Shown: positions 29,747 to 62,115, numbered from the stretch's first letter. The stretch: DNA of 64,000 bases from Acidobacteriota bacterium (GCA_040005235.1 JBDTZG010000010.1:1-64000); one strand, 5' to 3'. Translations and numbers: made by a program. The notes: a model not told the origin generated them from the letters alone.

Positions 29747-29943
29747 GCCGGCGGGATTGTATGCCGGCTGCTCCGGCATCGAGGGACTTGACCGCCGGCC
29801 AAGTCACCGCCAAGGCGGCAGTCATGGACAACCCCAGGGTGAGGTGATATATCTAAACTAAATTAACCAGTTTACATTGACGACCTTTTCCACGGAACTG
29901 CCACGGTGCCATAGTTGATTGCCACACAGGGAGGGTTTTCATC

Positions 29944-30219
29944 ATGCTGGCTGAGTACAAGACAAAGACGAATATCGGTGTAGGCCTCGGCATTATTGGC
30001 CAGCTTGTGGGCCGCACCCTCGTCGGGAAGGGTGAGACAGGCGGCGGCCTGTATTTGATTCTCGGCTTGGTGTTGATCCTGGCGGGAGTCGTCTCTTTCA
30101 TCTGGGGCTGCTGTTCGTACGCTGTTGGTAAAGGATATTCGTCTTCCTATGGCTTTCTTGGGCCACCGAATTCCGGTCCCACCACGCCGTTTTCGCCGCC
30201 ACCGTCAAATCCCCGCTGA
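29944..30219 (+). pseudogene. Small membrane protein, apparently 3'-truncated
   Basis: Hydrophobic protein up to WGCCSYAVGKGY...GFLG, then an abrupt switch near 30162 to Pro-rich, non-protein-like sequence. Confidence 0.5.
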
Positions 30220-30369
30220 ACGAAAACGCCGATTCGGGAGTCGGAGGCGGCACCTTTCTTCCCTTGGTCCGCCGATGTCCCGCCCGCCATCTCCTCCGGC
30301 GGGGCGGGCCGGAGGGCCGCGCACCCGGTCGGACTTATTGACTCTTGCCAATATCTAGATTGACGGGCA

Positions 30370-31227
30370 GAAGCGCTCGACGACTCGGAGCTGGACAGCG
30401 CCCTCTCCGACGCGCTCCCCACCCTGTCGATGACTCCCGGCGAGCTCTATTTCGGCGACAACTTCGACCTCTCCTACGAGCTGCCGGTGGCCGCGATCTA
30501 CCGCAACTTCAAGTTCGAACCCGACGCGCACGACTTTGGGGCGAAGCGGGTGATCGGTCTCAACATCCCGGCGGGAGGCGGCGTGACCGACGCCGAAAAG
30601 GTGATCGCGCGGCTGGCGATTCATCCGAACACCGCGCGCCACATCGCCACCAAACTGCTCATCTACTTCTGGGGCTACGAGCCGCCGGCCACCTACGTCA
30701 ACCGGGCAGCCACCGTGTTTCGCAATACCGGCGGCGACATCAAGGCGATGCTCCGCACGGTCCTCCAGCGCGCCTGGATGGAAACCGCCCCGGCCAAGCT
30801 GAAGCGGCCGTTCCATTACGCCGCCTCCGCCGTGCGCGCGACGTTCGGCGCGGTGGACGATCCCGGGCCGCTGTTCGATCATCTTTCGGACTCCGGCCAC
30901 CTCCCCTACTACTGGTCGCCGCCGAACGGCTATCCGGACACGCGGGTCTATTGGTCGGGATTTCTGCGCAACCGGTGGAACTTTTCGCTCGATCTTTCGT
31001 CCAGCGATTCGCTGGGCATCCGCATCGATCTCGATCATCTGCTGCCGAGAAACCTCACCCCTCAAGCGCTCACCACGCGGATCAACGCGCTGGTCGCGAA
31101 CGGCAAGCTCGCGCCGGTGACGCAGAACGCCGTGCGCGATTTCCTGCGCGGCGGACAGCGAACGGCGCAGCGGGTCCACGAAGCGCTCGGCCTCGCTTTG
31201 GCTTCTCCCGATTTCCAAGAATTTTGA
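30370..31227 (+). pseudogene. DUF1800-family gene, 5'-truncated with an internal in-frame deletion
   Basis: C-terminal motifs HDFGAK, HPNTARHIATKL, KLKRP, PPNGYPD and LASPDFQ are present. AAIYR runs directly into NFKFEPDAHD near 30504, without the RQLxE/FWxxHF/NENYARE core. An in-frame stop lies at 30361. Confidence 0.7.
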
Positions 31228-31251
31228 TTGACCGCGACCCGGAGAATTTCG

Positions 31252-32547
31252 ATGAGCAAGCACGACGAACAGAAGGGTTGCGCCGAATTCAATCATCTTT
31301 CGCGGCGGAAGTTTCTCGGCCTGTCGGCCGGCGCGCTCGCCGCGGCCGCCGCTCCCGCCTGGCTGCCGAAAGTCGCGTTCGCGACGACCGCCGACGGCTC
31401 GCGCGACGTGCTGATCTCGATCTTTCTCCGTGGCGGCGCGGACGGCCTGACTCTCGTGGTGCCGCACGGTGAAGACGCCTACTACGACCTGCGGCCGACG
31501 CTTGCGATCCCACGGCCCGGTAGCGGCGCCAACTCGGCGATCGACCTTGACGGCTTCTTCGGCCTGCCGCCCGCGATGGCCGCGCTCAAAGAGGCGTACG
31601 ACGACGACGCGCTGCTGTTCGTCCACGCGACCGGCTTGCCCGACCCGACCCGCTCGCATTTTTCCGCGATGTATTTCATGGAGGTCGGCCGCCCCTCGCC
31701 GCCCACGTCCCTGTTCACCGGATGGCTGGGCCGGCATCTCGCGACGACTCCGGCGGCCGTGCCTGGAGCGCCGTTGCGCGCCCTCGGCCTCGGCTACGGT
31801 CTGCCGCGCAGCCTGGTCGGCGCACCGCAGACCGTGCCGGTGCGCGACCTGGGCGACGTCGGCCTGGCGGGCGACGAGGCCCTAGCACCCGGCCGGCGAC
31901 GAGCGCTCGACGCGATGTACGCGGCGGCGACCGACTCGCTGCTCAAGGCGTCGGCGAACAACACGACGCGGACGATCGACCTGCTCCAGCGGATCGATTT
32001 CGCAGGTTACCAGCCGGCCGGCGGCGCCGAGTATCCGGACGACGAGTTCGGCAACGCGATCAAATCGACCGCGGCGTTGATCAAAGCGCAGGTGGGTGTC
32101 GAAGCCGCGACGATCGACCTGTCCGGCTGGGACAGCCATGAGGAGATGGGCGCGATCGACGGCGACCTCGCGGTCCTGATGACCAGCCTTTCCCGCGGCC
32201 TCGCAGCGTTCCACAAGGATCTCTTCACCAGCGGGTTCGATCGCGTGGTGGTCACCGTGCAGTCGGAGTTCGGACGGAACGCAAACGAAAACGCCAGCCG
32301 CGGCTGCGATCACGGCCACGGCGGAGCGATGATCGTCCTCGGCGGCCAAGTCGCCGGAGGGCGCATCCTCGCCGACTGGCCCGGTTTGGCGCCCGATAAG
32401 CTCTACGAAGAGCAGGACCTGCAGATCACGATCGACTACCGGGACATCCTCGCCGAGATTCTCCAGAAACGTCTCGGCAATACGAATTTGGCGGCGGTGT
32501 TCCCTGATCCGGGATACAGCCCAAGCTTCAAGGGTGTGATTCGGTAG
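31252..32547 (+). CDS. DUF1501-family Tat-exported protein
   Basis: Twin-arginine signal SRRKFL. FLRGGADGL, RSHF, GWDSH, SEFGR and DHGHG motifs. Confidence 0.92.
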   Translation: MSKHDEQKGCAEFNHLSRRKFLGLSAGALAAAAAPAWLPKVAFATTADGSRDVLISIFLRGGADGLTLVVPHGEDAYYDLRPTLAIPRPGSGANSAIDLDGFFGLPPAMAALKEAYDDDALLFVHATGLPDPTRSHFSAMYFMEVGRPSPPTSLFTGWLGRHLATTPAAVPGAPLRALGLGYGLPRSLVGAPQTVPVRDLGDVGLAGDEALAPGRRRALDAMYAAATDSLLKASANNTTRTIDLLQRIDFAGYQPAGGAEYPDDEFGNAIKSTAALIKAQVGVEAATIDLSGWDSHEEMGAIDGDLAVLMTSLSRGLAAFHKDLFTSGFDRVVVTVQSEFGRNANENASRGCDHGHGGAMIVLGGQVAGGRILADWPGLAPDKLYEEQDLQITIDYRDILAEILQKRLGNTNLAAVFPDPGYSPSFKGVIR

Positions 32548-32551
32548 ATTG

Positions 32552-32953
32552 CTACTGCCGAGCATCCTGGCGCTGCACCGAGCCAGGCCAGTCAAGAATC
32601 TTCTGATCGGCGGTCAACAGTCGGTCACCCCGCAATAAGGCCGTCGAGGTGATCAAGCGATCGGCAGGATCGCCATGAAATTCCTCGAGCGACGCGGCGG
32701 CGATCCCGATCCCGCCATCGACGACGATCTCTCGTACGCCGGCCGACAAAAGATCCTGTCGCCAGGCATGAACCGGGATGGCAAGCTCGAGACGCCCCTT
32801 CTCGATCAGCATCGCGGTTTCCCAGAACGAGATCGCCGAGACCCCAAGCTCACCCGCCTGGTGGGCTTCGTCAATGGCCGCCCGAGCTTCCACCCCAAGT
32901 CTGGAATCTGCGCTGTCGAGCCAGATCAAGACGTGGGTGTCGAGCAGGATCAA
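32552..32953 (-). CDS. vapC: VapC-family PIN toxin
   Basis: LLDTHVLIW, SAISFWE, HGDPADRLI and LLTAD motifs. Confidence 0.92.
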   Translation of the reverse strand: MILLDTHVLIWLDSADSRLGVEARAAIDEAHQAGELGVSAISFWETAMLIEKGRLELAIPVHAWRQDLLSAGVREIVVDGGIGIAAASLEEFHGDPADRLITSTALLRGDRLLTADQKILDWPGSVQRQDARQ

Positions 32954-34289: not shown

Positions 34290-34895
34290 TCAGGAGCCTT
34301 CCTTCGGCGACCCTGGAAGATCGAGCCGAATCCGGCCGTCGCCCCCGAACCGGAGCCGGATCTCGCCGTCGCGATCGGTGCGTAAAACGCGAAGTCCGCG
34401 CGCGGCGAACCGCTCCAGCACCTCGGGCGAAGGATGGTAGTAGGGATTCTTCGGCCCGACCGAGATCAACGCCCAACGGGGATCGACCGCGTCGAGTAGG
34501 AATCCAGCCGACGAGGTTCGGCTGCCGTGGTGCGCCACTTTGAGCACGTCGGATCGCAGGCGTTCTTGCGGCAGATCGAGCAGGCGCAGCTCTCCTATCC
34601 GTTCGACGTCTCCGGTGAGCAGCACCCGCCGACCGTACACCTCGGCGGAGAGAATCAGCGAACGTTCGTTCTCGGCGGTTCCACCCCGTTCCACCTCCTC
34701 ACGCGATGGCCCGAGGACGCTCAGCCGCCAGCGCCCGACGCGGCCACGAGCCCCCGCGACGAACGTGCGGACCCGCGCGCCGGGGACCGAAAACAGCTCG
34801 CCCGCGCAGCCTTCCGCCGGCCAGCCCGGCGCGGTCCAGATCTCCCCAATGTCCAAATAGGACGAAAGATCGACCAGGCCTTGGCAGTGATCTGA
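34290..34895 (-). pseudogene. comEC: 3' part of comEC/rec2 (metallo-beta-lactamase domain), interrupted by the integrative element
   Basis: The frame reads DHCQGL...ENERSL...LLTGDVE...LKVAHHGSRTSS...ISVG..NPYYHP...RTDRDGEI. Similarity stops inside the HxDxDH motif. Confidence 0.88.
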
Positions 34896-36451
34896 TTGCC
34901 GTGCCTTTTTGCCAGGCCTTTGGGGGAAGGGGGGCTGGAGGGAGGGGTGCTCGACGGAGATGTCCCAAAGGGAGGGATGGTAGGCGGAGGTGTATAGGCG
35001 AGGTTGATTTCGATCTCCCCCTTGCCTACGACGATCCGCTCGACCACCTGCTCCACGATTTGCCTCCGATCCTCAAAGGGAAGCTGCGGCCATCGGGCAT
35101 ACAGAGACCCCGCTTCGACGACAAAGCCGGCAGCGGAGACCTGCTGGATCTTGAGGAAGTCAACCTCCCCCTGAAGGCGAGGAATCTCGGTATCGAGCTG
35201 GGAGGCTCGTTCCTCAAGCGGACGGTGGCGCTCCCCAAACGACTTGGTTGAGAGCCCCTCGTCCTGATAGAGCCGGTAGAGCTTGTCCATTTCAGAGGAC
35301 ACTCGGGTGCGCTCCCGCAAGAGCGCTACTAAGAGATCCTCCTTCTGGCACAGTGCCTCATCTCCTTCCGAGAGGTATGCCGCGACCTCCTGAGGGTCGA
35401 GGAAAAAGTCTCGGAGCTTTTCGTGAAAGACCTGCTCAAGGTCCGCAGTCGGGATCTTGTTATGACACCCTCCCAGCCTGCTGTTGCAGATGTACTTCGG
35501 GCTGTTGGACGGGACGCGCATCTTCCGGCCACAGGAGCAGAAGGTGACGCCAGTGAAGAGGTGAACCGCCGGGCGGCCTGTCCGCTTCACCTTGGCGAGG
35601 CGGTCTTTGAGGTATGCGTTGCACTCTTCCCAGATCTCCTCGGACACCACCGGCTCAACGTTGGTCCATACCCATTCGTGCTCGGGCTTGATGAGTCGCT
35701 TCACGCCGTCGCTGCGGGAGTAGTTGGCGCGATGGAGCCCCTTGGCGACCGGGTTGGTGAGGAGTTCCCGGATGGTCATGTCCGCGAACAGTTGCCCCTT
35801 CCTCGTCCGATATCCAGCCTCGTTGAGGAGGCGGGCAACCCGGCCGATGAGACGATGCTCCCGGAAGAGTTCAAAGACGAGCTTCAGAATCGGAGCTTCG
35901 CTCGGATCGGGCATTAGCCGCGCCTTGTTCTCCCAGCGGTATCCATAGGGAGCCTTCCCCGCGACTGGTTTCCCTAACTTGGCCCGGATCGGCACCGATG
36001 CCGCTATCCGGGCGGAGATTTCCTCTCGCTCCCACTCGGCAAGGGCCGCGATGAGCGTGTAGAAGAAGCGGCCGGCCGGGCTTGAGGTGTCGATCGACTC
36101 CGCGAGGGAGATGAGGTCGGCCCCTTCCCGCCGGAAGATGTCGGCGAACTCCAGAAGCTCCTTGGTGTTTCGAGCCAACCGAGCGAGCTTCGAGAAGATG
36201 AGGCCGGTGATCGTGCCTTCCCGTACGTCGGCAAGCATCTCGATCGCTTCGGGCCGGCCCATAACGGACTTCCCTGAGATCGCATCGAGCCGGTACACCT
36301 TGGCGACAGTCCAGCCCTTCATCTCGGCGTACATCCGGGCGCGAGCTTCATGGGTCTCCGGGCTCTCACCCTTGACCTGATCCTCGGTTGAGACCCGAAT
36401 CCAGAGTCCTACTTGTTTGCCTCCTATGCTATTTGGCTCCTGCAGTTTCAT
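34721..36451 (-). CDS. Large serine recombinase (integrase 1)
   Basis: Catalytic IRVST, SKLARLAR, APYGY, Zn-ribbon CSCG...C..C and coiled coil. The C-terminus runs across the att-like site. Confidence 0.93.
   Translation of the reverse strand: MKLQEPNSIGGKQVGLWIRVSTEDQVKGESPETHEARARMYAEMKGWTVAKVYRLDAISGKSVMGRPEAIEMLADVREGTITGLIFSKLARLARNTKELLEFADIFRREGADLISLAESIDTSSPAGRFFYTLIAALAEWEREEISARIAASVPIRAKLGKPVAGKAPYGYRWENKARLMPDPSEAPILKLVFELFREHRLIGRVARLLNEAGYRTRKGQLFADMTIRELLTNPVAKGLHRANYSRSDGVKRLIKPEHEWVWTNVEPVVSEEIWEECNAYLKDRLAKVKRTGRPAVHLFTGVTFCSCGRKMRVPSNSPKYICNSRLGGCHNKIPTADLEQVFHEKLRDFFLDPQEVAAYLSEGDEALCQKEDLLVALLRERTRVSSEMDKLYRLYQDEGLSTKSFGERHRPLEERASQLDTEIPRLQGEVDFLKIQQVSAAGFVVEAGSLYARWPQLPFEDRRQIVEQVVERIVVGKGEIEINLAYTPPPTIPPFGTSPSSTPPSSPPSPKGLAKRHGNQITAKAWSIFRPIWTLGRSGPRRAGRRKAARASCFRSPARGSARSSRGLVAASGAGG
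34876..34919. other. Candidate att (recombination) site at the comEC/element junction
   Basis: Imperfect inverted repeat AGGCCTTGGCA ... TGCCAGGCCT centred at 34897-34898, where comEC similarity ends. Confidence 0.65.
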
Positions 36452-55033: not shown

Positions 55034-55168
55034 GTGGACTTCGTGGACGTAGGGGACGTTCCTCAGGCATCCGAGAGCTGGCGAGGTCAAGCAATATGGC
55101 CCTGATTTGGCCTAGCGGTTCACCGCCGCGCCGTCCTCTTCCTCGTCCCCGATGTCCCCTATGTCTAC
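55034..55168. repeat. Two convergent triplets of 9-bp iteron-like repeats
   Basis: Plus strand GTGGACTTC GTGGACGTA GGGGACGTT (55034-55060). Minus strand GTAGACATA GGGGACATC GGGGACGAG (55168-55142). Confidence 0.6.
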
Positions 55169-56491
55169 CTGCGGTGTGCTCGCTGAAGGCATGACGTTGT
55201 ATCGCTTCGCAAGCTTAGTAAGACGTTCCATGTCTTCTCCGGGTAACACGTAGTTGCCCTGGCGCTTGCGAGGCGAAAGCCCAAGGCGCCGGAGAATGGC
55301 CCCAACAGCACGGGGTGACAGAGGTGCCCCACCGTCATTCCCCGAGAGCTGTCCTGCGATTAACTTCACGGGGACCACTCCCGAGAACCTCTCTCGCAAG
55401 GCAAGGGCGGCGGCTACAACATCGGCCTCAATCGAGTCACTCCGCAGGTTGCGTAGATTGATACTCGCCTGCCGTGCAAAGGCAAGGAGCCGCACCCGGC
55501 TATTCTCGTCATCAACCGAAGCCAGGAGTGATGCAAAGACCTGGGCGATCCGGGGTTCAAGCGTACGGAGTTCGGGGATATCAAGAGCATCCGTCCGGCC
55601 CGCTTCCCGGAGGCGGTACATCAAAAGCTGATTGCGGATTGTGAGGGCCTGGTGCTCGAATTCGGGCGGAAGATTGAGCGGGATGTCCGATCGGACATCG
55701 CCCTGTCCCAGATGCGCCGTGATGCAGCGGCTCTCTAGGGCCGGATCATCAAAGTAGTGGCGGGTCGAAATGAGCTTCGGACCGAACACCTTGAATGCCC
55801 GAGGATTGAACTCCCCTGTGGGGGTAGTATCGGTTCGCAGCACCGGAAAGCCCTTGGCGTTGCCATTGTTGAGGATCTTCACAATCTCGGCCTTTTCGTC
55901 CGAGAACCGGAAATCACCCTCGTCCAAGACCAGCGTCCCACCGACGGCATCGAGAATCCGAAACAGCGGGGACACGGTCGATGCTCCAGAGGCAAAGATA
56001 GGCCGGTAGACGATCGAGCCCACGGTGGTGAGGAAGCGTGATTTGCCAGAGCCGTAGTCGCCCAAAACCCGCAGGTATGGGAGGTCGGGAAAGTCGTCGT
56101 ACCGCCACGAGAAGCACACGTAGTGAGCGGCGACTTCCTCGAAGTCTGGCGGAAGGTCAACGTAGCGATGGATGAAGCCGCGCACCAGCGCACGAAGTAC
56201 CGGCTCAGCCTGGTACTCCGTTGCTTCAGACGGAAGGAGGATCGCCTTGTGGGTTATGAGGTTGTTCTCTGCCGAGTACGGCACGAGGAGCCTGCCGTTG
56301 GGAAGCTCGACGCTTTCCGCTTCCCGAGCTTCTCCGTCCCGCGCGACGACAAAGAGCGTTTTACGCTCCTGCGGACGGTATAACAGCTCGACCATTGTGC
56401 CGTCAGGAAGACGCGCCGAGACCGCCGGCAGTTTGCGCCCGGACTCCTGCCGCTCTGTCTTCGCCGCGTCTTTCTTCGTTTGATCCTGCAT
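55112..56491 (-). CDS. P-loop NTPase, probable replication (helicase/primase-associated) protein
   Basis: Walker A GDYGSGKS, Walker B LVLDE, ILNNG, ALESRC and a C-terminal wHTH-like segment. Confidence 0.72.
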   Translation of the reverse strand: MQDQTKKDAAKTERQESGRKLPAVSARLPDGTMVELLYRPQERKTLFVVARDGEAREAESVELPNGRLLVPYSAENNLITHKAILLPSEATEYQAEPVLRALVRGFIHRYVDLPPDFEEVAAHYVCFSWRYDDFPDLPYLRVLGDYGSGKSRFLTTVGSIVYRPIFASGASTVSPLFRILDAVGGTLVLDEGDFRFSDEKAEIVKILNNGNAKGFPVLRTDTTPTGEFNPRAFKVFGPKLISTRHYFDDPALESRCITAHLGQGDVRSDIPLNLPPEFEHQALTIRNQLLMYRLREAGRTDALDIPELRTLEPRIAQVFASLLASVDDENSRVRLLAFARQASINLRNLRSDSIEADVVAAALALRERFSGVVPVKLIAGQLSGNDGGAPLSPRAVGAILRRLGLSPRKRQGNYVLPGEDMERLTKLAKRYNVMPSASTPQVDIGDIGDEEEDGAAVNR

Positions 56492-56598
56492 CCTCCTACG
56501 ATATGCACGATCGAGTTACGAACAAGGAGGGGGTTTCTTCTCTTCCGGCACGAAGCGGTTTCTTTTTTCGTTAGCCTCGATCCTCTATCGTCGCTCTC

Positions 56599-56781
56599 AT
56601 GAACGCGGCTCCCGATCCATCCGACGATTTCGTCATCACCTTCGCACCGGACGCAACGCCCGAAGAGGAAGAGCGCTTCCTCACCGAACTTGCGCATGCA
56701 ATTATAGCGATTGCACGGCATCTTGTCGCTCAAGAGGACGAACAGTCCGACGGGAGCGAGTCGGACACTATCGAGTTCTAA
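56599..56781 (+). CDS. Small acidic protein A upstream of recombinase 2
   Basis: 60 aa, paralog at 58582-58773. Confidence 0.6.
   Translation: MNAAPDPSDDFVITFAPDATPEEEERFLTELAHAIIAIARHLVAQEDEQSDGSESDTIEF
56623..56709 (+). repeat. 87-bp direct repeat, copy 1
   Basis: Identical to 58603-58689 except for one base (ccG/ccC). Confidence 0.9.
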
Positions 56782-56823
56782 GACGCTTGCCAAATTCGGT
56801 CAAGGCTGTATCATCAAAAACCT

Positions 56824-58563
56824 ATGCCCAATGATTCGCGCGCTCTCATATATCTGCGCGTCTCAACTGATCGCCAGGCGCAAAAGGGTATCGCAATCCC
56901 CACCCAAGAAGTGCAGTGTCTTTCCCATGCAACCCAACAAGGATACGTCGTGGATGCAAAGACAGATATCTACATTGACGGCGGCGAGAGTGCCCGCACT
57001 ATGGATCGACCGGCGCTCTTAGATCTTCTCACCCGTTGCAAAGAGGACGATGCCGTGCGTGCGATTATCGTCTACGACGTCTCACGGCTTGCACGCAACC
57101 GTCTCGACTTCGCCATCATCAAGCAGGCCCTCCGCAAGGCAGGAGTAACCCTCATCTCCGCGACAGAGCCGATCAACGATAGCCCCGAGGGACAGATGCT
57201 TGAGGGAGTGCTTTCGACGGTTGCCGAGTTCTTCTCCGCTCAGAGCGGACGCAAAGTACAGGCGAATATGCGCCGCAAGGCGGAGGCCGGGGGCTGGCCC
57301 AATCTCGCGCCGTACGGATACGTGAATCGAAAAGGAAAACTACCAGACGGGGAAATACGCGCCTGGATCGAGCCGCAACCCGAGGAAGCTCGATGGGTCA
57401 AAAGAGCGTTTGAGCTGTTCGGAACCGGTGGGTACTCGGTCAAGGTTCTTGCACGTGTCCTCCACAAGGATGGATTCGTGGTACGAAGTGTTAGGAACCG
57501 GAAGTCCAAAACGCTTCATAATTCCCAGCTTGAACGGATACTCCGCAACAAGCTCTACATCGGCATCATCGAATGGGGAGGAGTCGTCAATGACCATGGA
57601 ACCCACGAAAAGCTCATTGACCCTGACCTCTTCTATCGCGTGCAAGACTTGCTCGCCGTGCGCTCCCTCTCGGTCACCCGCGTGCGCCGTCACCGCTCCC
57701 TGTTCAAGAGATTCGCCCGGTGCGGTGAATGCGGGTCACCAATGACGATTGACGTAAAGGAGACCTCGACAACCCGCTCGATCCGCTACCTGAGGTGTCG
57801 GAAGATCAAAAAGTGCAGCCAGGCTTACTTCGCCGAGGAGGTGTATACCGAGCAGCTTGAAAGGCTCGTGCGGCGCGTCGAGCTACCAGCGAAAGCCGTT
57901 GAGACTCTCCTGGAGAAGGTCAAACAAGTCTCCGGCACAGACGAGCAGGTGCAGGAGCAGGTACGAACTCGCCTTCTGCGGGAGCGTGAGGTGGTGGAGC
58001 GGAGACAGCAGAACCTCCTTGTGCGTACCCTTGACGATGATCCGCGCAATGAGGCCCAGCGTTCGCTCTATGAGCGAGTCCGCGGGGAACTCGCACAAGA
58101 ACATGAACGTCTGACACGGGAACTCGGCCGTCTCAAACTAAGGCTCGACAGAGTTTCACGAATCTTGATGATGGCTCTTGAAATTACAGGCTGTTCGAGC
58201 CGCGCGTTTGAGGCTGACGCAGATCCCGATTACAGAGGGATCATCGCACGTGTGATTTTCAAGGGAGTGCAAATGTGCGACGGGAGAATCGTCGATGCGA
58301 AGCTCACTGCCCCACTAGCCGCCTTTCGCAGATGGGCAGGCGAAAAGCCGTTGGAGCGCTTGGCCGATTTGGCCCTACTCTGTGCGCGTGACGGGATGCT
58401 AGTAGACGGTTGCGCAAAGCGACCGGAGCGGCACGTTTCGCTCTCCACGATCCGTCGGGATCTTCTCCGACTCGAAAAATCACTTACTCCAGAACAAGAA
58501 GCGGAAATCGAATCCTGCTATCACGAGCTGCGAGGCAGAAGGTTGCTATTATCTTCGGTATGA
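56824..58563 (+). CDS. Large serine recombinase (integrase 2)
   Basis: YLRVST, DVSRLARN, APYGY, CGECG...C..C Zn ribbon and coiled coil. Confidence 0.93.
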   Translation: MPNDSRALIYLRVSTDRQAQKGIAIPTQEVQCLSHATQQGYVVDAKTDIYIDGGESARTMDRPALLDLLTRCKEDDAVRAIIVYDVSRLARNRLDFAIIKQALRKAGVTLISATEPINDSPEGQMLEGVLSTVAEFFSAQSGRKVQANMRRKAEAGGWPNLAPYGYVNRKGKLPDGEIRAWIEPQPEEARWVKRAFELFGTGGYSVKVLARVLHKDGFVVRSVRNRKSKTLHNSQLERILRNKLYIGIIEWGGVVNDHGTHEKLIDPDLFYRVQDLLAVRSLSVTRVRRHRSLFKRFARCGECGSPMTIDVKETSTTRSIRYLRCRKIKKCSQAYFAEEVYTEQLERLVRRVELPAKAVETLLEKVKQVSGTDEQVQEQVRTRLLREREVVERRQQNLLVRTLDDDPRNEAQRSLYERVRGELAQEHERLTRELGRLKLRLDRVSRILMMALEITGCSSRAFEADADPDYRGIIARVIFKGVQMCDGRIVDAKLTAPLAAFRRWAGEKPLERLADLALLCARDGMLVDGCAKRPERHVSLSTIRRDLLRLEKSLTPEQEAEIESCYHELRGRRLLLSSV

Positions 58564-58581
58564 ATAGACTAACCGATACAC

Positions 58582-58773
58582 ATGCAAGCAGCAGAACCCT
58601 TGGACGATTTCGTCATCACCTTCGCACCCGACGCAACGCCCGAAGAGGAAGAGCGCTTCCTCACCGAACTTGCGCATGCAATTATAGCGGTCGCAAAGCA
58701 CCTCGTTGATCAAGAAGATCTCGTAGCGGCTGAACAAGCAGGAGAAACTTCTGATTCAGAACACACCCTGTGA
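58582..58773 (+). CDS. Small acidic protein A' (paralog of 56599-56781)
   Basis: Shares DDFVITFAPDATPEEEERFLTELAHAIIA. Confidence 0.6.
   Translation: MQAAEPLDDFVITFAPDATPEEEERFLTELAHAIIAVAKHLVDQEDLVAAEQAGETSDSEHTL
58603..58689 (+). repeat. 87-bp direct repeat, copy 2
   Basis: See 56623-56709. Confidence 0.9.
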
Positions 58774-58820
58774 CCACCCGAAGGGGGTGATGTGTGCCAC
58801 AGTGGTACTAAGTCCTGTCT

Positions 58821-58997
58821 TGTGCGCGTGATGGGGTGTTAGTAGACGGTTGCACAAAGCAACCGGAGCGGCACATTTCCCTCTCTACCATGCGTCGCGA
58901 TCTAATTCGGCTTGAAAAGTCGCTCGATCCAGAACTAGCTGCCGATATCGAGTCCTGCTATCACGAACTGCGCGGCAGAGGCACATTTGCGACCTAA
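58821..58997 (+). other. Diverged duplicate (B') of the recombinase-2 3' segment at 58381-58563
   Basis: Open frame CARDGVLVDGCTKQPERHISLSTMRRDLIRLEKSLDPELAADIESCYHELRGRGTFAT*, with 43 of the first 53 aa identical to the recombinase tail. Confidence 0.8.
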
Positions 58998-59003
58998 CTA
59001 CAA

Positions 59004-59825
59004 TTAACTTTGGCCTCTAGTCGAAATTCGCCTACACCACCCTGCTACATCTTCGGGCACCGCGAGAACGAGGCGGTGTCCATGCATCTGTGCGAACTGA
59101 GAAGCCGAAGGTAAAAAGCGAGAGGTGGTTACAAAGAGTCCGCGGCTTGCTTGTTGGTGCTCGACCACTCCGTAGAGAGCAGCGACAGCTTCGAGCTTAA
59201 CAGGGTATTGCGGGTCGTATCGTTTCGCCTGCACCAAAGTGACAAGCTCGCCGATCGAATCCTTCTGGACGAGACGAATATCGACTCCGGCATCCCCGCT
59301 GCCTGGACCGAGTTCCGTGTGAGACCCCTGATTCCGAAAGATAGCGTCGAGAAGATATTCAAACTTTCGCCACTCTAGTTGATGGAGTTCATTAGGATGT
59401 AGCCCAAAATATTCAATTAGCTCATCATTTACCGTCTTAAAGTCTGGCGTTACGACATGGCATACATGCGCAAACCTGGAATTTGCATAAAGAAGCTCAA
59501 AATGCCTCAATTCATTAAGTTTCTCACGCGATCTCCGCAGCCTATCTTGCCGAAGACCGTTTGGATATTGCTGATAGGTTTCAATGTCGTCGATGGCGTG
59601 ATAGTTAGCGAAATCCGTGCCATCATTGACAAAAACTGCCCGATATTCGGCGAGCTGCTCATCTATTCGCTCTTCTTCTCCTTTAGCTCTCCCTTCTTCT
59701 TCAACAATGCGAGCCATTTCGGATTGCAGAAATCTTTCAAATCCGTTGTGCGGTAAGACCGCGAGCAGTTGCTCTATCGTTATCGTCTCGTCCTCCAAGA
59801 ACCTATGAAACAGTTCTAGATTCAT
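59004..59825 (-). CDS. Mrr-like restriction endonuclease
   Basis: LEWRKFE, D.GVDI, LVQAKRY and VTTSRF motifs. AT-rich. Confidence 0.87.
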   Translation of the reverse strand: MNLELFHRFLEDETITIEQLLAVLPHNGFERFLQSEMARIVEEEGRAKGEEERIDEQLAEYRAVFVNDGTDFANYHAIDDIETYQQYPNGLRQDRLRRSREKLNELRHFELLYANSRFAHVCHVVTPDFKTVNDELIEYFGLHPNELHQLEWRKFEYLLDAIFRNQGSHTELGPGSGDAGVDIRLVQKDSIGELVTLVQAKRYDPQYPVKLEAVAALYGVVEHQQASRGLFVTTSRFLPSASQFAQMHGHRLVLAVPEDVAGWCRRISTRGQS

Positions 59826-60355
59826 TAAGCGTTATCTCAAAACTGAGAATTGTTTTGATTGACCGCTGTCTTTGTAGAAGAGGTGTCCACCAAATGATCC
59901 ACATTCTTCCTGTAGCGCACAGGGTAGTGTGTTCTCGTGTCTAGCCAGCGGCGTCTGATGAGCGGCAGAGAATACTGGAGAAAATATAGCGGCACATCGT
60001 ACATGGCGCAAGTTCTTTCTACGCCCACTCATTACGACATGGCAAAGAATGCATCCAGCGATCAGCGGCAAATGAAGAGAGTCTCAACGTAGATCTAACG
60101 GCAAAATCTCCTGAAATGGCTGCCGGGGAGAACCGACGTTTACCCCGCCGGTCCTTGGCGCTCCACTTACGTTCCGCAATTTCGTCACATTTCGGGCTCT
60201 CAAAGGCCGCAAACAAGGCGTAACTCGGTCGGTTTGTTGCGACTATCAAGAACATCCGTCCACTGAGGGCATCCCGGCCGCACTGTAGAGCCACAGGCGG
60301 CCCCTCATCCTGGGAGTCAGGAAGCGAGCGGAAGCCGTCTCGAAAGGTGTTCGGG

Positions 60356-60628
60356 ATGGTCCGTCGAACTGTCGTCCTTGTTGCGTCCTTCCTTCTGGTG
60401 GCCTCAGCGGCGCTTGCAGCAGGCGCCTCCCGCGAGTCTCGATCTCTCTGGGAATCGTTTTCGACAAGATCTTTCCTGGAATCAGTCCGTGTCGCGCTCA
60501 GCGGTCTCCTTCACGATCCGATCGGTCTCTTTGCGAACAATGGCAGCGAGACCGATCCAAACGGCAAGCCTCTCGCGTCGCCGCCGGCAGGAGTTGGAAA
60601 CGGCGGCACATCTCCTCAGGCCCAGTGA
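60356..60628 (+). CDS. Small secreted peptide precursor with G-x-x-x-DPNG motif
   Basis: Signal peptide ending ALA, amphipathic middle, NNGSETDPNG, own terminator. Confidence 0.7.
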   Translation: MVRRTVVLVASFLLVASAALAAGASRESRSLWESFSTRSFLESVRVALSGLLHDPIGLFANNGSETDPNGKPLASPPAGVGNGGTSPQAQ

Positions 60629-60643
60629 TTGATGTCTGTGCTC

Positions 60644-60678
60644 GGCGGAGGCCAAATTATCGGCCTCCGCCTCTTTTT
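60644..60678 (+). terminator. Intrinsic terminator
   Basis: GGCGGAGGCC / GGCCTCCGCC stem followed by TCTTTTT. Confidence 0.8.
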
Positions 60679-60750
60679 GTCCCGGATGACCCCTTGAAGC
60701 TCACCTCCAAGAGTAAGACACTACAGCTCTAGCGCGAAAGGACACAGGGG

Positions 60751-62115
60751 ATGAATGATCTGCATCTGAGTCGGGAGCTTCTTCGTGCCATCGCGGCCGG
60801 CGACCTTCCCCCTCGCACACTTCTCGACATGGCCCTCCCACACCTGTTCGAGCTTTGCCCGCACTGTGCCTCGGAGTGGGATTCGTATCAGCGCGAGATG
60901 CGGACGCGCCCGGGAAGTTACGCGGGCGCCTTCGCGATTCTTCCAGCCCTCCTCGAACGGGAACTTCCCAAGGCACAGGCAGAGGAACACCAAGCCCGCA
61001 AGGATCTCCAAGTCCTCTTGGGCCTCCCCGAGGACCAGCGTATTTCGCGTGTTCGTCGCTCCTATCGACGCTTCCGGACACCGACTCTGGCCCAACTCCT
61101 TGTTATCGAATGCAGGAAGCGGTTGAGTTCCGTTCCCCGCGAGGCCTACCATTTAGCGGATCTCGCTCGCGAGGTCACAAACCAGGTTCCCGAGTCACCG
61201 ATCGCCCGCGAGCTGCGGGCGCTTTCGTTTGGCGAGATGGCAAACGCCATCCGGGCCGTCGGTGATCTCCCACAAAGCGACCGCATCTTCGGCCAGGCTC
61301 GCTACTTCACCGTGGTTGGCGGGGTAACCGATCCAGAGATCCTGGCACGGCTCGACTCATTGGAAGGCTCACTGCGACTCGACCAGGGCCGCTACCGTGA
61401 TGCCGAAGAGATCCTCGGCAGGGCGCGGCTTCACTACGAGCTCATAGGCGACCGTCCTGCGGTCGGGCGAGTGCTCATGCAGCTCGCGACGGTGTACCGC
61501 CGCAGTGGAGAGACTTCACGCGCAGTGCGGCTCGGGACAGAGGTCGTCGGATACTTCGACCCTGAGTCCGACCTTTGCCTCTATCTCGCCGCCCGGCGGA
61601 ACCTCGCGGACTACCTTGGCGATTATGGGCGCGGGAGGGAGGCCCTCGCGATTCTCGACGAGGACGAGGTGCGGCATCGCTCCCTCGGAGAGCCCCTTCT
61701 CCAGATCCGCTACACCTGGATTCGCGGCAAGATCGCTATCGGTCAAGGAGAATTCGAGAGCGCGGCGCGCCTTCTTGCCGCGGCGCGCGATGTCTTTCTT
61801 GGCTCCCAGAAGGAGTTTGACACCGTTTTGGTCTCACTTGATCTTGCCCAGGCCTATCTTGGTGCCGGACGCCTGGAGGAGACGAAGCGAATCGCCTCGG
61901 AAATCGTGCCGCTCTTCGAGGCGAATGAGCTGCATCGCGAGGCATTGGCGGCCGTTCTCGTTTTTCGCGACGCCGCCGAGCGCGAGACGCTTACGGTCGA
62001 TTTCCTGCGAGAGATGGGAACATTCCTCGAAGCCTCCCGGACAGATCATTCTCTGCGATTCGAGCCTGGCAAGCGTCTGAATCCACGGGGACGGACACTT
62101 AGCAATGACGCCTGA
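60751..62115 (+). CDS. Cytoplasmic TPR protein with N-terminal HxxxxCxxC Zn-binding motif
   Basis: HLS...PHLFELCPHC followed by helical TPR repeats. No signal peptide. Confidence 0.85.
   Translation: MNDLHLSRELLRAIAAGDLPPRTLLDMALPHLFELCPHCASEWDSYQREMRTRPGSYAGAFAILPALLERELPKAQAEEHQARKDLQVLLGLPEDQRISRVRRSYRRFRTPTLAQLLVIECRKRLSSVPREAYHLADLAREVTNQVPESPIARELRALSFGEMANAIRAVGDLPQSDRIFGQARYFTVVGGVTDPEILARLDSLEGSLRLDQGRYRDAEEILGRARLHYELIGDRPAVGRVLMQLATVYRRSGETSRAVRLGTEVVGYFDPESDLCLYLAARRNLADYLGDYGRGREALAILDEDEVRHRSLGEPLLQIRYTWIRGKIAIGQGEFESAARLLAAARDVFLGSQKEFDTVLVSLDLAQAYLGAGRLEETKRIASEIVPLFEANELHREALAAVLVFRDAAERETLTVDFLREMGTFLEASRTDHSLRFEPGKRLNPRGRTLSNDA

Follow-up and report, generated by a model that had tools for sequence, protein, structure and literature searches.

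The rec gene and the short train of gene fragments behind it occupy positions 56599 to 58997 of a 64,000-nucleotide stretch of DNA from an Acidobacteriota bacterium (GCA_040005235.1, JBDTZG010000010.1:1-64000), the whole of which is referred to here as the window. The gene encodes a large serine recombinase, and directly behind it stand a paralogue (A') of the small gene A that precedes it and a second, start-less copy (B') of the C-terminal tail of the recombinase (B). The explanation that we favour, tentatively and with slightly less than even confidence, is that a recombination site lies inside rec, and that the remnant of a related A-rec unit, entering with its tail in front, was joined in at this site and displaced the old tail. 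An earlier note on this DNA had described the same arrangement and had taken it for an integron-like series of accreted units; its observation is confirmed here, and its interpretation is partly supported.

The locus begins with gene A (56599-56781, plus strand), an open reading frame (ORF) call for a 60-aa acidic protein specific to the rec family, which is followed by a promoter-like TTGCCA-16-TATCAT (56787..56814, plus strand) whose motif is kept across loci, and by rec itself (56824-58563, plus strand). The 579-aa product consists of an N part (residues 1-519, ending at 58380) and the tail B (residues 520-579), and the border between the two falls in a putative recombination site, att1 (58355..58409, plus strand). 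Downstream of the rec stop codon lie A' (58582-58773, plus strand; 63 aa), a second site, att2 (58797..58849, plus strand), with a left arm, a core and a right arm, and the orphan tail copy B' (58812-58997, plus strand), which matches rec residues 517-574 at 76% identity. The ORFs are thus found where the earlier note had placed them. Its statement that only B and a paralogue of A lie between the two sites also holds, as the 440-bp unit between the cores (58381..58820, plus strand) consists of tail B and A' together with some 100 bp of unique DNA, the last of which (58719-58820, between the A' core and att2) matches neither the 3' end of A nor rec.

Two direct repeats define this arrangement. 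The first (58381-58539 and 58821-58979) is 159 nt long, with 82% identity and a spacing of 440, whereas the second (56614-56738 and 58594-58718) has 89% identity and a spacing of 1980, with an internal 87-nt core, shared by A and A', of 98.9% identity. Both tail copies open at TGTGCGCG, at 58381 and 58821, the shared site to which attention had already been drawn. At each of these positions a TGT codon begins, and recombination between the two cores would accordingly fuse the N part to B' without a frameshift. Exactly two occurrences of the site pattern are found in the window, compared with none expected (100 shuffles), and no further copy of the site, the unit or the tail is present in the 6.2-Mb genome (tail profile, E<=10), including the part beyond the window, where the earlier note had advised a search. 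Both att2 and the B/A' joint are bridged by contigs from two runs, and two other assemblies have the same layout; misassembly, which had been named as a possible refutation, is therefore excluded as the source of the A-rec-A'-B' layout.

The same layout recurs in related genomes. DNA was obtained for 11 family loci besides the window, and among the nine loci with at least 389 nt of downstream sequence the A-rec-A'-B' layout is found in three, namely the window, L024 and L026. The latter two are from other Acidobacteriota assemblies, with rec proteins 69% and 67% identical to that of the window, and in both an A paralogue directly follows the rec stop codon, with the second tail 512 and 640 bp after the first. 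The site thus occurs in related genomes with different cargo, for which the earlier note had advised a search. The layout is absent from L025, L032, L034, L035, L036 and L037, where the tail is followed directly by variable, mostly defence-type cargo; these six of the nine, which are relatives of 65-79% identity rather than the same strain, have the form of empty sites, and deletion of the 440-bp unit would convert the window to their layout, and in frame. Three lineages with a short insert of tail plus A between the N part and the old tail would fit best the signature of a gene-end-restoring insertion.

The tail profile was also compared with 1.84 billion representative proteins, which gave 15 matches, 11 of which were examined. 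Alongside complete recombinases and ones cut at an end, five of these 11 are tails without a recombinase body (P0121, P0126, P0127, P0128 and P0131), three of them truncated or decayed (P0126, P0127 and P0128). In P0131, the site-region peptide (..FDLGxLCAPNxxLADG..) is present twice in tandem before a tail, and in P0023, a full recombinase, the reading frame shifts right after ..LCA, corresponding to the core, and is regained near the end. All six of these proteins are singletons, on contigs of 13 kb (P0121), 4.6 kb (P0128) and 6.1 kb (P0131) in the three cases sized. A separate oddity of the search is P0133, in which a tail-end-like peptide, LQADVEYCYHRL, is repeated four times.

The site is also under constraint at the level of the DNA. 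At att1, the core TGTGCGCG (58381-58388) is flanked by a left arm with TTGGCCGATTT and a right arm with CTAGTAGACGG; at att2, the left arm CCACAGTGGTACTAAGTCCT (58797-58816) precedes the core (58821-58828) and the right arm TTAGTAGACGG. Over nine rec genes, synonymous-codon identity peaks at 0.63-0.67 at residues 505-534, compared to 0.47 overall, is 0.59-0.67 in the att1 stretch itself, and the peak holds also for loci without A'-B'. The arm to the left of att2 is non-coding, yet CCACAGTGGTACTAAGTCCT in the window and CCATAGTGGTATTAAGTCCT in L024 are identical at 20 of 24 positions (our own count), although synonymous sites are saturated between the A' genes of the same two loci. In both, TAYTAA and TTAGTA stand 27 nt apart around the att2 core, an arrangement seen nowhere else in the genome or the loci, and arms of the kind previously remarked upon (TACTAA/TTAGTA in the window, TAYTAA/TTAGTA over both loci) are present at att2 in two of the three loci with the layout. 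Around att1, a weak dyad is centred in TGTG|CGCG, with a mean of 10.5 of 26 positions over 11 rec sites versus about 6.5 by chance; comparison of half-sites by eye and by dyad score yielded only this weak dyad, and no type of arm emerged. No tRNA or known RNA is found at the site, and no motif like the att2 arm is found upstream of A. The placement of the crossover inside the rec ORF is based on the repeat boundary, the synonymous peak and the start of a population contig from run X4 (described below), all of which are indirect.

On this evidence, the two sites look like real recombination sites rather than a chance duplication. Recurrence, the conserved arm, the synonymous peak and the X4 contig start thus support the first half of the proposal of att sites of accreted units, while the array it envisaged comes down to two sites. 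Smaller points of that proposal fared unevenly. The recombinase-like end that had been read in another frame, SGTKSCLVRVMGC*, does exist as a reading but is meaningless, as it is the other frame that matches the recombinase, and the ATG or GTG overlapping its stop codon is not conserved. The reported identity of B and B', 43 of 53 residues, is close to the 43 of 54 counted here from the Cys codon. One further sequence, CACTACCCTGTGCGCT, agrees with the att1 left arm plus core at 13 of 16 positions; it lies inverted, on the minus strand, in the interval that separates the Mrr gene from the following block (about 59910-59925), and the match is probably due to chance.

The displaced copy, B', has no conserved start codon. 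In all three loci an in-frame stop codon, TAA in the window, lies exactly three codons ahead of the Cys codon; the L024 frame has no ATG, GTG or TTG, and the GTG start called by an ORF finder in the window and in L026 is the Val codon of the conserved LVDG. A small-protein search with B' in the word-indexed database gave no candidate. Nevertheless, 39 of 48 residues are identical between B and B' by BLASTP, and from the Cys codon onwards the identity is 43 of 54 in the window and 46 and 39 of 54 in the other two loci, values that would be reached under random substitution at the observed divergence with P of 1e-4, <5e-5 and 0.004, respectively. The ratio of nonsynonymous to synonymous divergence (dN/dS) between B and B' is 0.20 in the window, which fits the synonymous or conservative divergence that had been described, and 0.12 and 0.39 in the other loci, at synonymous divergences (dS) of 0.69, 0.99 and 0.49. 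The joint chance that all three B' frames would have stayed open under random substitution is 0.018. On these comparisons B' is ruled out as a separate gene, although its coding sense has been retained. Two readings of this constraint are possible: B' may remain in use, or the two tails may have acquired most of their divergence at a time when each belonged to a functional recombinase.

A model that accommodates these features begins with a locus of the form found in the six loci without the insert, backbone-A-N-tail-cargo, in which the recombination site of rec would lie inside its own gene, at codon 520 (att1, 58381). The incoming DNA would be related to rec and enter tail-first, most likely as an A-rec unit in circular form, about 2 kb long, or as an N-less derivative of one. 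Crossover within the gene would have the newcomer supply its own tail (B) and then its own A gene (A'), such that rec stays whole, while the resident tail (B') is shifted 440 bp downstream, without a promoter or start codon and still joined to its original cargo from Mrr onward. The tail-then-A order of the insert is a circular permutation of A-N-tail, and the insert is thus most simply an N-less remnant of the A-rec unit of about 2 kb. The rec protein presumably acts at att1 and att2, B' being the original tail, and att2 may still be able to recombine. If so, recombination between att1 and att2 would free the 440-bp piece as a circle and restore N-B' in frame. The idea that this piece is a minimal non-autonomous element can be retained to the extent that it would be an att-bounded remnant; it is better read as what is left of a larger unit than as a primary element.

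The principal rival is a tandem duplication of the A-rec unit of about 2 kb, followed by loss of the second catalytic part, with no site-specific step at all, an explanation that is possible though unlikely. Here, two intact direct-repeat sites would be unstable, and only arrays without the second left arm would survive, placing the deletion ends just to the left of the core; B' and A' would be functionless relics. Duplication accounts for the distance between A and A', which equals the length of the unit (1980 in the window and about 2000 in L024 and L026), for the decay of some orphan tails among the metagenome proteins, and for the lack of a ..TIEF end in the A' copies; in the alignment, ..TIEF or something close to it terminates every A gene and none of the A' genes. 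It does not explain, by simple deletion, the 100 or so bp between the A' core and att2, nor the retention of the att2 left arm in the window and L024 in spite of saturated neutral sites. Three lineages would moreover need repeated similar deletions. On the B' branches of the three loci, with other tails as outgroups, 21 nonsynonymous and 19 synonymous changes are counted by parsimony on saturated data, a rough count that nonetheless has fewer nonsynonymous changes than the unconstrained expectation of about three-quarters, itself a rough estimate; and all three B' frames are open.

The origin of A' also bears on duplication. The synonymous sites of A and A' are saturated within both L024 and L026 (dN 0.26-0.37), and by hand count the A' cores resemble A genes from elsewhere in the family more closely than the A of their own locus; on these comparisons A' in the two loci is foreign and no local copy of A, which counts against duplication. 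The window differs in that 86 of 87 nt are identical between the A' core (58603-58689) and A (56623-56709) in genes that have otherwise diverged, a pattern attributable to recent gene conversion. As a side observation, assembly graphs of public runs break at this 87-nt core, and one contig is exactly 1980 nt long.

Several observations weigh against insertion at a site within rec, and some of them favour duplication. The abrupt start of similarity at the core, as noted earlier, is real in the window and is not universal: in L026, DNA similarity to rec extends about 25 nt further to the left, with frame-breaking indels, and the metagenome tails P0121 and P0131 keep 5-8 codons of the N part. Variable left ends of this kind, lying between 0 and about 25 nt upstream of the core, are easier to reconcile with deletions than with a single fixed crossover. 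L026 also lacks the conserved att2 arm and an in-frame ATG for A', and no match was obtained for its 270-nt spacer. In all three genomes with the layout there are two sites, or a single insertion at most, and the A-rec unit is never seen apart from the same backbone neighbour, so that an independently mobile 2-kb unit lacks support.

The two tails present a further difficulty. In the window and in L024, B is slightly better than B' at tracking the phylogeny of the N part (r 0.78 versus 0.68, and 0.82 versus 0.77), and B therefore looks native, which does not fit a newcomer unless B' drifted after its displacement; the B' branch is in fact faster at the protein level in two loci, and L026 has the reverse pattern of tracking. 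Large serine integrases pair attP with attB, the half-sites of which differ, and the right arms of att1 and att2, being collinear homologues, do not fit this logic.

Population data bear on both explanations. Logan contigs of four runs were compared with the locus, two of the runs (X3 and X4) being other samples from the same study. No joint of the 440-bp deletion and no circle junction is present in the contigs of the four runs, in which rare forms would be missed; this result counts against an active site. The earlier note had recommended such a search in reads, and of its claim that excision swaps the tails in frame there remains the prediction that deletion would join N to B' in frame. X3 and X4 hold about 10% of the query words, and their contigs cover only B-A', at 100% identity, with no N-part contig from either run. 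The X4 contig (279 nt, 58381-58659) starts at the first base of the core, an exact break that duplication does not account for and that is suggestive of a branch in the assembly graph, as would be expected if the same B were joined to another left side. The X3 contig covers 58412-58689, followed by 53 unmatched letters and then by 56763-56811 with 5 mismatches, the unmatched stretch having the exact length of 56710-56762 in A. This contig can be read as B, then a gene of A type that keeps the 3' end of A, then the promoter region of rec; it resembles an undeleted tandem, and may come from another strain in which B is succeeded by a further complete unit, or be a low-coverage chimaera formed via the shared 87-nt core. 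Coming from one study, these contigs are hints at a site and no proof of one.

The integron-like interpretation supposes a docking point in rec at which tail cassettes pile up, with the tails and A paralogues as working parts, which might for instance alter directionality or the choice of target, and a programmed switch from B to B'. All points in favour of insertion at a site within rec apply equally to it, and in every locus the tail gives way at once to variable, defence-type cargo. For instance, the tail is followed by Mrr in the window, by SMODS and SLATT in L032, by TIR and a ParA-like ATPase in L026, and by GNAT in L036; gene content changes from locus to locus, with several genes of defence type. 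Exchange of tail plus cargo at the site would also fit the P0015/P0021 pair, whose tails (0.82) are far more alike than their N parts (0.66), 3.5 standard deviations above the trend. Over all pairs, tail identity follows N-part identity (r 0.68), and exchange must accordingly be rare. With two sites per genome and none after the Mrr gene, the notion that B'-Mrr starts the next cassette is not supported; in all four arrays the first unit measures a mere 72 to 640 bp and is without cargo, the contigs of the four runs hold no excision product, and no tyrosine integrase, attC or Pc is present. A docking point of this type is thus very unlikely, even though the co-occurrence of A and tail, both of which are missing from L027 and L028, would suit it.

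A different function for B' would be that of a silent donor, from which gene conversion would refresh or diversify the expressed tail in the manner of pilS or vls cassettes, with no site-specific step. Such a role would explain why B' is start-less yet keeps its coding sense, and the A/A' cores indicate that gene conversion is active in the locus. The tails themselves, with a dS of 0.5 to 1.0 between B and B', have undergone no recent conversion, there is a single donor copy and no evident reason to vary the tail of a recombinase, and A', the conserved arm and the contig break at 58381 are left unexplained. This role for B' is hardly credible.

A bolder version of insertion at a site within rec can be imagined, in which the rec family docks small tail-bearing circles at its own 3' end. 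The tail plus A' would then be a hyperparasite of a conjugative element, borrowing rec, keeping it alive with a spare tail, and adding an A' that is without the ..TIEF end and possibly retunes the enzyme, and the site would also shuffle the cargo block, tail first, among related elements, making it a serine-recombinase counterpart of the integron platform. Taken as a whole, this scenario is distinctly unlikely.

More generally, if the site inside rec is active, partner DNA must carry part of the recombinase gene, which would tie enzyme and substrate together in a manner for which the literature searched holds no description in this enzyme class; an active site would also explain the re-sorting of backbone and cargo in soil conjugative elements, and would provide a natural 440-bp minimal element mobilised by a large serine recombinase, an enzyme class used in genome engineering. 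If the locus is only a relic of duplication, it is ordinary wreckage, yet its recurrence and the breakpoints at one codon point to a recombination-prone site.

The recombinase and its relatives form a well-defined family. The protein has a resolvase catalytic domain (PF00239, Resolvase; E 2.5e-28, residues 7-158) followed by PF07508 (Recombinase; E 7.7e-13) and a zinc ribbon (PF13408, Zn_ribbon_recom; E 8e-7), as in large serine recombinases, and its YLRVSTDRQ motif is nearly invariant across 30 homologues. A word-indexed protein search with rec returned 137 proteins. About 27 homologues are 62-78% identical over 98-100% of rec (90-93% for two shorter ones), and all have the tail, with the consensus ..LADLALLCAPxxxLVDG....IESCYxELRGRxLLP, while other proteins, at 41-51% identity, align with only about 85% of rec and are without it. 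The small gene A is found upstream of rec in 10 of the 11 family loci with upstream sequence, the sole locus without it being L039, which is 56% identical and on a contig that ends before the tail. Both A and the tail are lacking in L027 and L028 (46% identical to rec), and L038 (47% identical) has no tail and only 65 nt of upstream sequence, too short to judge A. Taken together, the C-terminal tail of about 60 aa and the upstream gene A can be regarded as the two marks of the rec family. AlphaFold2 models give A one strand and a long helix (pLDDT, the model's per-residue confidence, of 82), and the tail region of rec is modelled poorly (mean pLDDT 50).

The family is met only in soil and rhizosphere assemblies, and is rare, with none of 400 other genomes sampled from the phylum carrying the tail. 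Viral contigs contain five rec relatives, all 23-30% identical and none from the rec family. The backbone neighbour on the other side of A is also conserved: in the window it is a P-loop protein of 459 aa, divergent from A (55112..56491, minus strand) and without a family match in Pfam or PHROG, and a minus-strand ORF of 400-490 aa, matched across loci by size and place, precedes A in six of the seven loci scanned (L024, L025, L026, L032, L036 and L037). On the opposite side, the first cargo gene after B' encodes an Mrr-type restriction endonuclease (59004..59825, minus strand; Pfam Mrr_cat, E 2e-25). Upstream of A, a motif (T/C)GGCAC-N9-10-TTCTTTT was noticed by eye about 40-60 nt before the start codon in six of nine loci (56540-56575 in the window), and is unlike the TTGCCA-16-TATCAT promoter-like site before rec.

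The whole locus lies in an island that was inserted by another enzyme. Homology of seven genus relatives to the window stops exactly at 34,892, and in four of them (G003, G006, G004 and G002) the sequence left of this position runs straight into C104:66,852, providing empty sites with a junction overlap, in G003, of 2 nt. The island thus extends from 34,893 to C104:66,851, about 32 kb, and ends outside the window. It is a conjugative island with coupling-protein-like, ArdC-like and RuvC-like genes, and it splits comEC. At its left end is LSR2, a second large serine recombinase by its Pfam domains (34721..36451, minus strand), 29% identical to rec. The left junction, 34892/34893, lies 57 codons before the LSR2 stop codon, so that the island junction is inside the LSR2 ORF and the LSR2 C-terminus is read from chromosomal DNA. 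LSR2, and not rec, is the integrase that put the island into comEC. As rec sits 8 kb inside the right end of the island, it did not make the island insertion and its own site is not joined to the chromosome; with LSR2 as the agent of insertion, the rec site is intact, and the N part and tail of rec are contiguous.

Two other roles for the rec sites were considered and rejected. That rec straddles the attP of the whole island, with islands stacked, is ruled out by the lack of a third tail at the island left end or elsewhere in the genome, by the covariation of tails with N parts, and by the insertion of the island by LSR2. That att2 is the attR of the island is ruled out as the island ends 8 kb further to the right. 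The right flank of the locus gave no empty site, because the block at 60.1-62.1 kb is inside the island and differently placed in relatives, and the right flank of L026 finds only multi-copy repeats in relatives, with no boundary. No duplicated LSR2 tail was found nearby. Homologues of LSR2 are present in both other genomes with A'-B', at G061:C17:212811-214478 (the genome of L024; 53%) and G063:C13:9457-11085 (that of L026; 56%), with internal stops in both (one TAA in G061, two TGA in G063). In G061 the homologue and rec are on opposite strands, with the homologue 12-14 kb to the left, an arrangement shared with the window, and the genome of L025, which is without A'-B', has no LSR2 homologue.

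Parts of this arrangement have precedents. Serine recombinases are known to make target-restoring insertions, as exemplified by the staphylococcal cassette chromosome elements SCC/SCCmec at rlmH. Islands in tRNA and tmRNA genes rebuild the 3' end of the gene that they enter, the old end being left behind as a displaced fragment, the logic of Islander (as outlined in PMC4383910), and the ssrA islands of Dehalococcoides have a CcrB-like serine integrase, DsiB, and a 15-bp element-side motif just upstream of each repeat; tandem stacking and att-flanked, integrase-less remnants ('cis-mobilizable elements') are also described in the account of these islands (PMC3146451). The rec locus resembles the DsiB and SCC islands in having a large serine recombinase, an insert that regenerates the end of a gene, and an old end that becomes a start-less boundary repeat: an intact rec with tail B is followed by a start-less B' from the same codon. 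An element-side motif upstream of the repeat that does not align with the target, here CCAYAGTGGTAYTAAGTCCT, is shared with the Dehalococcoides islands. Unlike those islands, the interrupted gene is the recombinase's own, and not a tRNA, tmRNA or rlmH gene; the repeat is a constrained domain of 60 codons rather than 15-20 bp, the insert is only 440-640 bp, and there are two sites.

A recombination site within the recombinase gene has been described for tyrosine integrases. In myxophage Mx8, attP is inside the int gene (as given in PMC6070905), and the genes of SSV-type archaeal integrases contain their own attachment site (as given in PMC7253208). The feature that rec would have in common with them is a site in the recombinase coding sequence at which recombination rewrites the C-terminus of the enzyme; in the neighbouring LSR2 this feature is present, its island junction (34892/34893) lying within the ORF. 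Those enzymes are tyrosine recombinases, and integration gives an unrelated 3' end (Mx8) or a split gene (SSV), whereas rec has serine recombinase domains and no tyrosine fold, its partner would supply a homologous tail, and the protein would stay whole. With integrons the likeness is in outline only, in that promoter-less units would be added serially at a site by or in the recombinase gene; the enzyme is a serine recombinase, attC, attI and Pc are lacking, the units carry part of the recombinase gene, and there are two sites at most. By its sequence features, the rec locus is not an integron.

With the integrases of phiC31, Bxb1, A118/LI and SPbeta, rec shares the set of Resolvase, Recombinase and zinc ribbon domains, and the 2-nt junction overlap of LSR2 is as in canonical large serine integrases. 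rec departs from them in its family tail of about 60 aa that houses the putative site, in its dedicated upstream gene A, and in sites that share a collinear right arm rather than forming an attP/attB pair with unlike arms. Own-gene sites in tyrosine integrases, and target-restoring insertion with stacking by serine recombinases, are therefore already known. The combination of a serine recombinase, its own gene as target, and a constrained tail repeat with a 440-bp insert was not found in the literature searched, which consisted mostly of abstracts.

Two other variable segments of the window were seen in the comparison with genus relatives. The block at 60076-62088, which contains a small ORF and a tetratricopeptide repeat (TPR) protein with an anti-sigma-like start, is 67-81% identical in six genus relatives and adjoins different genes in each, while in the window it is inside the island. 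Further to the left, 2.8 kb at 29770-32553 are missing at the syntenic place in G003, where 29770 is joined to 32553 with 71 nt between; other relatives keep part of this small variable segment, which lies beside a PIN/Phd toxin-antitoxin pair.

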